NCBI RefSeq assembly: GCF_006345805.1
Contig: NC_042999.1
Location: forward strand, 72,540,001-72,604,000
Length of the DNA stretch: 64,000 nt
Direction of reading: 5' to 3'
Source: Octopus sinensis
Lineage: Eukaryota
The notes below the pieces were generated by a model that was not told the origin of the DNA, did no database searches, and saw only the letters and a list, made by a program, of their open reading frames with translations. Numbering within the stretch: position 1 is the stretch's first letter; each line of letters starts with the position of its first letter. Positions 10,401 to 19,400 of the stretch are shown here, one piece after another. Made by a program: the position numbers and the translations under genes.

Positions 10401-13400
10401 AGGGTAGAGTAGAGTTAAATAAATTGATTCCCAGTACTTGAGTAGTACTTTATTTTATTGACTCCTGAAGTTAAAAAACAGATAAAGTCAAACTCAATAA
10501 CATTTGAATTAGTGATGTAAATGGAAGTAACTATCACAAACCATTTCCTTTGGCACTCTACCAAACCAAGAATACATAAAGTTGTCAAATACAATTCTTA
10601 GCGGGAGGATTTTTTTCACTATATTCAATGTAATGACAATCTCATCGTTTTCTAAATAATTTTCTGACTTAACAACAAACCTACTAGTACCTAAAAAAGA
10701 ACTAACGTTTTTAAAGTTCATGTTTGTCTCAACTGTACAAGAAGCCTAAATGAAATGGAACGTCTTTACTCGGGAAGCCCAACAGATTCAGTTTGCCAGG
10801 AGCTTCTCATTCTATGGATATTGCATACAGTCTATTTCTACAGTCACAGAAGTATTCATATCAAAGCTGTCTCCCTAACTGGTTTGTATTGATTAGGATA
10901 ACTTTAACTAACATGACTGTTGCTCAAAATGTTACTATGTGGCACCCACATTTCTTATAATCTTTAAAGATGTTTTAAGCTCTTGATTTAGAGAAAACAA
11001 TGGCCAGTTAGGAATGCTACAATTCCTCACAAATCTCAGAACCAAAACATAACTGATTAGGGCTACACATCATAATCAAGATCTTATCCTGGGCCCTTCA
11101 ACATCCTTGAAGCTGTACAAGAACACTCAAGATTTTTTTTTATTTTGAGACCTAGCAGAATCCATCCATCTCCAAGTCTAAACAAACAGTGAATTTCTTC
11201 TAGAAAACAGAACAATTGATGGACAGAAAGTGATAAGAGAAGAACCAACCACAATACAGGACTAGTACTTTGTCAGCTCTAAAAGGATAAAGGACAAAGT
11301 TGACCCCAGAAAGATTTGAACTCAGAGCATAGAGAGCCAAAATGATTACTGCAAAGTAATCTCCTCAATGCACTAATGATTCTGACAATTGGTTGCATTG
11401 TCACTAACAATAATTAATAGTAGAGAGAGAGAAAAAAAAACAGTTAAAATAATAGAAAGGTATTTTACACAGCTCATCTTAGTTGCTGTAACTGATATTT
11501 CCCAGATCTTCCTACAGCAGAACCAAACTGACAAGAAACTGAAGCTTTAGTTCATTCAACTGCTGTCATATACTTTATCAGGGTCTTCATTAAATACTTT
11601 GTTATTAAGGTGAAACACCTAAATCTATTTTCTTTTAATGATGAAATATAATTTCTTGGCAAAATGTCTTGTGGGTAGTGTTCTCAAACTTAGATCTTGA
11701 ATAAATAATTACAATAGATCACAAGTTTATCTATTATTCCTTATCAAAACCCAATCATACACTTGACACCACTCAGTGGCCAATATGACCAACTGTACAT
11801 CAGATGCTGTCATCAAGTACATGACCATTACCTCCATAAAAAGAATTTCCAAGTTTTTCTGTAAATATTAAGAACACCAGAATATGAAGCGTATTAAGAT
11901 GATATAGATAGAAGATTAAAAGAAAGAAAAACAAAACAAAACAAAAACAGAACCAAAACAATAAAAGAAATGAAAGGAGGAAAAACTGTGTTAGTGTCAA
12001 TAATAAAATGAAAACAGAAAATTAAAAAAAAATAAAGACAGCAGTTGATGAGTACAACATGATATCCATTTTGATATAATATCACAAATACAAGAGCAAC
12101 AATCGAACTGTTGTAAGAACTGTGCAAGCAAAAAGCAATAAGAAGTGCAGCTGACATACCAGTGTCATTTAGAAGTATGGCCTCTGTGGCTACAAGGGCA
12201 GCAGGTAAGAAAGAGAAATCTCACAGTTAAACATCCAGACAATAAAGGACAGATTGTTGCGCATTGTGCCAATGCACATCAAACTCTCCAGGCATCACCA
12301 ATCATATTAGATCTAGCATTGTCCTGGGGACATGGGGGGCACACACACACATATACATACATATATATGTATATATACACATACATACATATGTATGTAT
12401 ACATAACTATACACATGTACACACATGTACATACATTTATACATGTGTACATATACACACAGATATTTACATGTGTATAATATATATATATATATATATA
12501 TATATATATACATATATACATATGTGTATGTGCGCGCATGTGTGTGTGTGTTTGTGTAGCCACTGGTGAATCCTAGTATTTCATATGTATATGATAGCAT
12601 TGCCATCAGAACTAATCAAAGATGTAGCACTGCACAGATATAGCTCTTAGCTTGCTCCTTGTAATATTTCGCAATCATGTCAATATACTCAGTATATATA
12701 TATATAACTCAGGACAATGCTAGAATTTGTTTTACAATAATAATAATAATAATTATTAATATAATAATAATAATAATGGCCAATCTCTGACAAGCTTTCT
12801 GCAAAGTAATATAAATGATTAGTATCATGTCAGATATAATGTTAACAGTCATCAAACGCTTACCTGAAGATATGTGTAGATGTGTTATGCTTTAGAATCA
12901 GACCTTCATTTTTAGTTTCATTACTGACATTTTCTACTGAATATTTTAATTAACTAAAATTAGCAAGCTAATGAAATTCTAATTTAGTGGTAACTTCTAC
13001 AGGTGTTTCTTACAGGAGTGGAATATATAATGTAGGCTAAAAGTCTGACAATGAATACATGCCTGCTACACTGGGAGACATGCAACATCCAAATAGGGAA
13101 GTCATATATGTTTGGTTTATTAAATATAATATTTCTACACCTTTACAAACAAGTTCAGTAGAGTTAAGATGTTGTGTGTAATTACTGTTATTAAAATACT
13201 AGAAATAAAGTAGAATGCATAAACTGAAAGCCAGAATTGAGAAACTGAAGAATCAAGAAGAGAAGATGATGAGGGAGGTCACATGAAAAAATGTAAAATG
13301 ATGAGTCTGCAAAGCAACTAGCTTTAAACAGATTTTGAAAGTATATGAAAATTCTCAGATAAATGAAATGTATAAATACTATTTTGTGTGAGATGTGTAG

Positions 13401-16400: not shown

Positions 16401-19400
16401 ATGAGAGTAGGTGTGTCATGGCATCATTGATAAATGCTTTCAGGTGCTTTGCCCATGGCAGCTGTGCTGATTGACAAATGAAAGGTAGGTCATTGACATA
16501 ATTGAGTGAGGTGCCAGAGTTTATAGAGTTTATTAGAGTGAATAGCTGTTGAGACAAACACAGTGCAGCCAGAGGTCAAGTTTTGGATCCAGGCAAATAG
16601 TTTAGAATTAAGACTATATGAAGGAAGTTTGATAAAGAAAAGAAATCCATCATGATAACAATTAAAACAGAAGTTTCCAAAGAGAGTTACTAAGATACCC
16701 AAAAACAAGTTCAATATCTCATATAACCAGAAAACTCCAGCAAATTAAAATTAATTGAAAGTAAGCGACCAATAACTCAAATTTGAAATGTTAATTTATA
16801 AAATTAGTAAAAATTTTTAATAAATTATGTATAAAAACAAAAAATACATACAAAATTAAATCAAATCAAATACAGAAAATTAAATTATTGGTGCAGTAAT
16901 GAGTGTTCAAACACAAAAGAAACAGAAAGATGTATTAGAAAGCATTATTCCTATAACTTCTAATTAGAAATGGAGATATATGCTGAATGATTTCATCAGA
17001 AAAGCAGAAAAAAAGGAAACAACTTAGACATGCAGTATTAACATGAATCAAAAATCTTGTATAAATTACTTTGTAAAGAAAGACTAAATTTCAAATTTTC
17101 TAATTGAAGTAAAACAAACATTTGAAAAGATTTAAGTAACTTTAATGCTTTGTTTTATACAAATGTTAGACAATCAAACACAAAATATCCAATTCTAATT
17201 TCCTACACTAGCTTGTACCAACATCTCCCCCCCCCCACACACACACACACTCTCTCAGCCTCTCTTGCTAGCGATTCTTCATTAGTCATTCTTCAACAAC
17301 TACACTGAAATCCATGCAAAGGACAGTTGTATAAATACTTACTGTAATAATTAAAATAATATTACTTATTGACCAGTATAATTTTTTTTTCTTCATCAAA
17401 TAATTATTTCTCAATAAATCTTTAATGCCCACTACATTAAATATGTTAACACTATCTTAAAACATTCAGTGACTATCATGAATTTAGATTACTTAGATTC
17501 TGTGAAGATATTCAAACACTTTTTTACTTTTTATTTTTCTTATGTTTGTTTTCTGCTGTTCCTATCTTTTTCCTTCTGAAAACCTATTACCAATTTAAAC
17601 AAGAGAACTGTACACACGCAAATTTCAACGACAATAAACCTATCAAATAAATGCCTACGTCCACAATATCCAATTTTCTATGATGGAAATTAAGAACAGA
17701 AGGGAATGAAAAAATTGAACAAAGAAAATTATCAATGCCAGGCCCACCTGACTGGCTCCTGTGCTGGTGGCATGTAAAAAGCACCCACTACATACTCAGA
17801 GTGGTTGGCACTAGGAAGGGCATCCAGCAGTAGGAACATTGCCAGATCAGAATGGAGCCTCGTGCAGCCACTGGCTCTCCAGACCTCAATCAAACCATCC
17901 AACCCATGCTAGCATGGAAAATGGACATATGATGATGATAAAAAAAATTGTATTTCTTTTCGTTTCTAGCTGGAGAAAAAAAAAAAAATCGACTTTTGAA
18001 AAAGATATCAATATTATTCTTTCAAAAGAAACCTCTCCAAATTTCACCTCAAAATTACTACAATACTCTATACACATTCTACCTCAAACAGGTATATATA
18101 ACGACCCGTCTCTTAACCTACACACAGCAACCTATCTCTATATACACTAACCTGCATCTTGGGTTCTAGCACTGTGCTGCAATCCCAGCAAAAGGTAATC
18201 CTGTCTTACTTAATTGTCCCACAATGAAGGGTACACTCACTATTGTATGCTGTACAAGGCACTATATATTTGACAAATGTTTCATGGAGCTTAACTCATC
18301 ACTAGGTATGACAGCAACGAAATGTCACATAGTAGTACCTGGTTAATATCTCTCTCAGTTTAAAAAAAAATCAAAAATAGGATTGTGTACGATGTATATT
18401 TCCTTTTGCACCTTACCTCCTCTGGTAGAATGCTCCACTGAGTAGTTGTGCATAAGTATTATACATTTTGATTTTTACTTTGAGAGGTAAAGTGAATGTT
18501 GTTATTCGAAATAAAATTAAGAACTAAATGTTTTCTTTTTGCAAAAGTCTACAGTGATTCCCCACCTCCACTCTTGATTCAATATCATTAAACTGGAAAT
18601 TGTTCATTAATTAAAAAAACTTACAGACAGAAATAGACCACAATGCTAAGGAAAAGAGAGGAATTTGATACTGAAACTTACATAGGAGCATGTTATAAAT
18701 GGGTAACCAAAATGCATGTTATACATGTATTTTGGTTACCCATTGTGACTCATTGCATTTCTCACAGCAAGAGTAAAAGGGAGTGCCAGTAACTTGACAC
18801 AGAACAAATATTGCAAAGGACTTCATTCAAAGAGCCCATTTTGGAAGTTTTTTTCACATCAGTGAAAGATACATCAATGTAATTCCACACAGTTTTTGTC
18901 TATGAAAGCTCATTCATTAAAAGTATTGGTTTTTTACCTAGTGTTACAGTAAAATATACTTGCTGCTCATAGAGCCACACCGTGGGATCAAACCCAGAGC
19001 CCAAGAGTTAGGAAGCAAGCTGTTGAACCAGACAATCGTCATAATTCCCCACTCACCCTTTTAATGGCTCATTCAGAAGAGGAAAGACAACACAACTAAC
19101 ACTTTTTCAATGATGAGAAAAAGATAAGAAGCCATGTTCCAACTTGGCCTGAATCCGAACAACAGAGTAATTCTCTGCTGAAGGCGGTGATGTTAAAGTA
19201 AGTGATGGTTTAAATATCAGAATTTAATTACATCAATACTCTGCATAATCTAACCTCTGAGAGATATAGCACCAGCATAATTCTTCTCCATAGATTTTTT
19301 TTTACAGTTTGTTTATCATTCATCACATTCAATGAGAACTTCTATCAATATCAAGTGAATCTAAATTATGTTTTGAATGCAGAGACTGCTGCAAGCTTGG

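Follow-up and report, generated by a model that had tools for sequence, protein, structure and literature searches.

The 64,000-nucleotide (nt) stretch of Octopus sinensis DNA analysed here (NCBI RefSeq assembly GCF_006345805.1, contig NC_042999.1, positions 72,540,001 to 72,604,000 of the forward strand; hereafter the window) contains a SERINC gene of 12 coding exons on the minus strand, whose tenth intron holds five short candidate exons, m1 to m5. All of the 453-residue protein record P0121 and residues 1-441 of a second record, P0126, map exon by exon onto the window, P0121 with 0 mismatches; P0126 scores 493 bits against the Pfam Serinc family (PF03348, cut-off 24). Identical protein records for the gene carry the labels Octopus sinensis and O. 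vulgaris. Intron 10 (21377..6331, minus strand) is 15,047 nt long, has GT..AG ends and lies in phase 1. Upstream of it, coding exon 10 (21378..21451, minus strand) ends with one phase-1 base and encodes a constitutive S-E-R-T-I-L motif (S-E-x-x-I-L); spliced contigs cover this exon in 4/4 runs of one set. Downstream, coding exon 11 (6177..6330, minus strand) begins with the Ser/Thr-acidic stretch GSTKSEDGE. The site at which intron 10 can contribute an insert is between the constitutive motif and the acidic start of exon 11.

Where in the protein does this site lie? The loop that receives the inserts is presumably the one between transmembrane segments 8 and 9. In an alignment it is the segment that the 7RUG chain (human SERINC3) lacks, and it corresponds to the loop called ICL4 in PMC10359404; it is likely to be disordered. 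Lipid flipping is reported for human SERINC3, and by analogy the octopus protein may have the same activity. An original prediction for this locus, made from the sequence alone, had named the SERINC gene, a phase-1 intron 10 of ~15 kb and a cytoplasmic loop; all three are borne out.

The same prediction described five units of the form YAG|...|GTA/GTG in intron 10, of 21, 21, 9, 30 and 27 nt, all multiples of three and open in phase 1. All five are present on the minus strand as described, in two groups: m1 to m3 lie within 405 nt, and m4 and m5 are 301 nt apart. The 30-nt m4 (12189-12160, minus strand) has UGC twice before its acceptor, at -14 and at -11, together with a UCUC tract; a motif resembling a branch point lies at -41. 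The 27-nt m5 (11858-11832, minus strand), which encodes EKLGNSFYG, follows a 125-nt AG-free zone and has no UGC. Both have the form of microexons, being multiples of three of up to ~30 nt with canonical AG/GT borders; some authors set the cut-off at 27 nt, and m4 is just above it.

It is almost certain that m4 is a real alternative microexon, conserved beyond octopods, and very probable that m5 is another, seen only in Octopus. All eight members of the Octopus cluster were read: two have no insert (P0121 and P0124), two have m4 (P0001 and P0127), two have m5 (P0122 and P0125), one has both (P0126) and one has m4 with intron read-through, which places m4 in 4/8 and m5 in 3/8 proteins. Four loop forms (none, m4, m5, m4 and m5) are thus on record, and not the 32 combinations that had been proposed. 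The records of m5 come from three Octopus species, the O. bimaculoides copy differing by one N/D change. In both O. sinensis and O. bimaculoides, RefSeq isoform X1 has m4, X2 has m5 and X3 has neither. RefSeq isoform models are normally based on RNA-seq. The accessions, under the name 'serine incorporator 1', are XP_029634468-70, XP_014777282-4 and CAI9719501-5; CAI9719501 holds m4 and m5 together, and none of these records holds m1, m2 or m3 or names a function or tissue. The expectation that the microexons would be easily missed by annotation was mistaken, since m4 and m5 already stand in RefSeq X1 and X2, and their presence in the databases limits the surprise of finding them.

A second cluster of 15 proteins includes a member from the cuttlefish Sepia pharaonis. 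The m4 peptide, conserved at 9/10 residues, is found in 5/15 of these proteins (10/123 of the contigs listed there), and m5 in 0/15. In one subgroup of this cluster the m4 site is preceded by an additional DK dipeptide in 3/3 proteins (P0133-P0135), encoded by a 6-nt exon or gained through a shifted splice site. Being in all three, the dipeptide may be constitutive, and the search for units in octopus intron 10 found no 6-nt counterpart. The read-through record of the Octopus cluster, P0123 (an O. vulgaris model), continues from m4 with 88 further intron-encoded residues to a stop (12189-11897, minus strand) and probably represents a partly spliced transcript. The idea that m4 arose as a duplicate of the exon 10 end is unsupported at the DNA level, where 12/30 bases match. 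A degenerate m4 motif scan of metagenomes gave 13 chance matches and 0 cephalopod SERINC loci, and a short-protein search gave 4 matches, none recognisably cephalopod.

Transcript evidence comes from the assembled contigs of 6/24 public runs, which carry no tissue labels; none of the runs listed is recorded as RNA. In run X18 a contig of depth 290 joins exon 10 directly to m4, and in runs X4, X6, X8 and X10 exon 10 is joined straight to exon 11, with m4 skipped; for X19 there is no exon-10 row among the contig rows listed for 12790-21570. In spliced contigs, m4 is both included and skipped, depending on the sample. Could all five units still be pattern-matching artefacts of AT-rich intron DNA? 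For m4 this is refuted by the X18 contig and by its presence in two cephalopod clusters, and against it for m5 stand the records from three Octopus species. What speaks for such an explanation, which we regard as extremely improbable, is the density of similar units in control sequence. Under the loose rule behind the original prediction (YAG, 6-30 nt in threes, GTA or GTG, open in phase 1), there are 77 units per 15 kb in intron 10, 73 on its antisense strand, and 77 in sense and 80 in antisense in the other ten introns. The comparison with the opposite strand and other introns, which the prediction had put forward as its own control, thus gives 73-80 against 77 and no excess. Because the density is equal in the controls, the rule alone shows nothing.

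An approximate score for splice sites, derived from general base frequencies at such sites and set against 87.7 kb of controls, ranks m4 1st, m1 3rd, m2 4th, m5 5th and m3 11th among the 77 units. Four distinct units (m4, m1, m2 and m5) score at least 4.65, against 1.03 expected (P=0.02); once m4 and m5 are removed, two remain against the same expectation (P=0.28). At the score level of m3 there are 10 units against 4.6 expected, or 8 without m4 and m5 (P=0.10). The above-chance signal holds for m4 and m5 only. Three frame-shifting units and one open unit of 51 nt in intron 10 reach equal or higher scores. Two of these outscore m4, namely the 51-nt unit (21004-20954, minus strand) and a frame-shifting one of 25 nt (9053-9029, minus strand). 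Both occur in none of the proteins examined, and unspliced contigs traverse the 51-nt unit. An inner CAG, 6 nt inside the m4 acceptor, would give an in-frame 24-nt version of m4 (12183-12160, minus strand); it ranks 2nd of the 77 and is in none of the protein records examined.

What, then, are m1, m2 and m3? The 21-nt m1 (18645-18625, minus strand), encoding ALWSISV, has a good pyrimidine tract and a GTAAGT donor, with no UGC nearby. The 21-nt m2 (18437-18417, minus strand; LEHSTRG) has a strong donor, a poor pyrimidine tract and UGC at -15. The 9-nt m3 (18249-18241, minus strand; AYN) has UGC at -12 and a GTGAGT donor and is unique DNA in the genome. The peptides of all three are in 0/24 cephalopod proteins (the Octopus and cuttlefish-containing clusters and Argonauta), and those of m1 and m2 are in 0/331 parsable loops from 378 proteins fetched. 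AYN occurs among these loops in two Ruditapes records only, within an optional insert at the same site. No join to m1, m2 or m3 is among those listed for the six runs, a comparison of low sensitivity to rare forms, and low-depth unspliced contigs traverse all three units. Furthermore, m1 contains Trp, which is found in 0/27 inserts of the SERINC family, and is more hydrophobic than 26/27 of them.

It is possible, though doubtful, that the array is nevertheless larger than two, with one or more of m1 to m3 (most likely m3 or m2) a real microexon, rare or restricted to certain cell types, that annotation and assembly have missed. The three lie close together in unique DNA, m1 and m2 rank directly behind the two forms of m4, and m2 and m3 have UGC near the acceptor. 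In addition, relatives have at least three inserts, some of only 3 residues (ATR in Biomphalaria, VAC in Pomacea), the Ruditapes insert contains AYN, and exons of 9 nt are hard to map. Set against this are the missing peptides and joins, a unit count not above chance without m4 and m5, and the equal scores of frame-shifting or unused units such as those at 9053 and 21004. Moreover, a stop codon arises when m1 is joined to m5, so that one of the 32 patterns is not open. Accordingly, m1 to m3 are likely to be chance look-alikes: m1 is unsupported and probably a pseudo-exon, with only a slim prospect of being real; m2, also unsupported, has a slightly better one; and for m3, likewise unsupported, reality is improbable but a little less so than for the others. 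That all five are real together is highly improbable. Of the five frame-preserving microexons claimed at this site, splicing is therefore borne out for m4 and m5, by protein records for both and also by the X18 join for m4, and has found no backing for the other three. Similarly, the assembled junctions upheld the join of exon 10 to m4 and, among those listed, gave none for m1 to m3. The idea of combinatorial use survives in P0126, in the four loop forms and in other molluscs, while the figure of 32 patterns does not.

How might m4 and m5 be regulated? According to PMC8797185, exons that depend on the eMIC domain are characterised by strong branch points, long zones free of AG, UGC near the 3' splice site and pyrimidine tracts that are longer than usual and bear UCUC. 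Among the five units, only m4 combines UGC near the 3' splice site with a pyrimidine tract and a branch point; m2 and m3 have UGC with a poor tract, and m1 and m5 lack UGC. In the same range UGC precedes 408/2443 control YAGs and 1/11 constitutive acceptors. From these signatures m4 is likely to be a neural exon of the eMIC type, and m5 is likely to be under another regulator; different regulators would explain why the two are mostly recorded separately. Like the neural microexons governed by eMIC/SRRM3-4 (Srrm234) in PMC8797185, m4 is short and frame-preserving, with UGC near the acceptor and a UCUC pyrimidine tract, and the genome has an SRRM_C match. Unlike them, m5 has no UGC, and the likeness of m4 is one of sequence signature. 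One match to SRRM_C (PF15230) in the genome exceeds the Pfam cut-off; it falls in an exon-like frame on a small separate contig (L015, G000:C11337:11167-11301, minus strand), and this frame is likely to be the octopus Srrm234 eMIC exon. The main text of PMC8797185 does not mention SERINC or TMS1, and one of its supplement tables lists only mouse exons of Serinc2 (69 nt, LowPSI) and Serinc5 (168 nt, HighPSI).

Inserts at this position are not peculiar to octopus. Optional short loop inserts are found in 20/20 scorable invertebrate SERINC clusters (molluscs, ticks, mites, a wasp, strongylid nematodes and echinoderms), the scored clusters being multi-member, many of them picked for 'isoform' names and the large ones partly listed, with two single-member clusters and a Caenorhabditis cluster left out. 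By contrast, 0/7 vertebrate clusters have optional loop inserts, their listed members differing by at most one residue. Inserts are combined in records from Aplysia, Mya, Pomacea, Ruditapes, Biomphalaria, scallops and oysters, which shows that combinatorial use of the loop site is real in molluscs. In a hand-made list of 27 non-cephalopod inserts, 23 contain Tyr or a Leu pair/Pro-Leu, where pseudo-units of matching length would be expected to give 8.5; m3, m4 and m5 fit this pattern, and m1 and m2 do not. The other invertebrate SERINC/TMS1 proteins (from Aplysia, Mya, Ruditapes, oysters, scallops, Pomacea, Biomphalaria, ticks, mites, Trichogramma, strongylid nematodes and echinoderms) resemble that of octopus: the same loop takes up short inserts that are optional, frequently combined and mostly equipped with Tyr or a Leu pair. 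They differ in that the insert sequences, here read from protein records, are lineage-specific. In echinoderms the inserts precede a conserved hydrophobic pair, whereas in molluscs and arthropods they follow it.

This invertebrate-wide pattern appears to be undescribed. A literature search by title and start of abstract, with subscription papers and large supplements mostly outside its coverage, found no paper on SERINC microexons or on alternative splicing of SERINC ICL4. There was no 'serine incorporator' paper among the matches listed for mollusc isoforms, and a search for TMS1 and Drosophila literature gave unrelated work only. SERINC is absent from the main text of a study of octopus tissue-specific exons (10.64898/2026.09.05.749416), and the searchable supplements of a long-read annotation (PMC9699675) gave no match.

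In human SERINC3, the phosphorylated acidic cluster SGASDEED is reported to bind the AP-1 and AP-2 mu subunits (10.1101/286633; 10.1101/590646), and SERINC1/3 are described as AP-4 cargo (10.1101/235226). This cluster aligns with the Ser/Thr-acidic start of octopus exon 11. The alignment shows that in both proteins this loop (ICL4, or 'loop 10', in human SERINC3) carries a hydrophobic pair with a Ser/acidic cluster after it. Point substitutions are the source of variation in the human cluster, whereas in the invertebrate loop inserts immediately before the cluster play that part. Of the octopus inserts, m4 contains a true LL in a repeat of the [ST]-E-x-x-hydrophobic-Leu pattern of exon 10, and m5 supplies a Tyr. 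To judge by human SERINC3, the octopus loop inserts may tune trafficking.

The reading that we favour, with a probability of about 0.6, is that m4 and m5, used singly, together or not at all, retune sorting through the SERINC loop by splice-controlled changes of signal. The splicing factor Srrm234, with its eMIC domain, would switch m4 on in neurons through the UGC motifs before its acceptor, and m5 would answer to a different regulator. Inclusion of m4 would add a second [ST]-E-x-x-hydrophobic-Leu motif in register of S-E-R-T-I-L, m5 would add a tyrosine, and both would increase the distance between the first motif and the Ser/Thr-acidic cluster of exon 11. Altered binding of AP clathrin adaptors would then change the cellular location of SERINC and leave the transmembrane core untouched.

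Several points weigh against this proposal. The canonical dileucine sorting signal is [DE]xxxL[LI] and the tyrosine signal is YxxPhi. The T-E-A-I-L-L of m4, with Thr at -4 and Glu at -3, does not fit the former, and could act like a dileucine signal only if the Thr were phosphorylated. In the Y-G-G-S of m5, the residue at Y+3 is not bulky and hydrophobic, as the latter would need. By these consensus patterns neither insert is canonical; that the two work like a sorting switch is a proposal. The evidence for a neural m4 is the UGC signature, which about 1 in 6 random acceptors share, and the SRRM_C match covers only part of the domain (positions 13-55 of 67), in a frame that is RS-rich. There is no read-level join to m5 among the runs mapped, and its inclusion and skipping are known from protein records. 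Because assembled contigs drop rare forms and the joins are listed in part, with contigs on 12790-21570 swamped by dispersed repeats, the transcript evidence speaks for the presence and skipping of m4 and not for the absence of m1 to m3. Lastly, entries in the list of 27 inserts are phylogenetically non-independent.

Alternatively, m4 and m5 may be real but serve mainly as spacers, or be tolerated variation in a disordered loop, altering length, phosphorylation or turnover and not adaptor binding, or doing little. The rapid turnover of inserts between mollusc lineages, with little common sequence, is consistent with this, as is the assembly of the skipped form in 4/5 informative runs. A human SERINC3 construct with ICL4 deleted yielded a cryoEM map (PMC10359404), and the loop is thus not needed for the fold. 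However, m4 is nearly invariant between octopus and the cuttlefish-containing cluster although adjacent residues differ, and the Tyr and Leu-pair content of the inserts is far above chance. We consider this explanation weaker than the favoured one, with limited probability.

Some further features of the gene and its surroundings were observed. Intron 10, which is AT-rich, contains a GC-rich 22-bp tandem repeat of 4.1 perfect copies (8213-8302) and, at 12863 (minus strand), one CAG|GTAAG site like those of recursive splicing, with a weak pyrimidine tract. In intron 7, a broken element (27654-28669, minus strand) has a GIY-YIG-like frame with an E value of 0.00025, just under the cut-off, which is suggestive of a Penelope-like retroelement. 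Downstream of SERINC, an open frame of 396 residues (1013-2200, minus strand) has an endonuclease/exonuclease/phosphatase domain and is likely to belong to a LINE retroelement.

More broadly, and tentatively, the fourth loop of SERINC proteins may be a bilaterian-wide hotspot for the repeated gain and loss, in invertebrate lineages, of microexons with Leu-pair or Tyr sorting signals, giving combinatorial isoforms with different cellular addresses. Vertebrates would have replaced these by paralogues with fixed loops, and the octopus set would consist of an eMIC-driven neuronal m4, a separately controlled m5 and, possibly, m3 as a hidden 9-nt exon that encodes a tyrosine. The normal cellular role and the sorting signals of SERINC proteins are poorly known outside work on HIV. 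Natural variants of the loop, with a Leu pair or a Tyr gained or lost near an adaptor-binding acidic cluster, offer a ready test of which residues address the protein, and in cephalopods m4 provides a concrete case of a candidate neural microexon.

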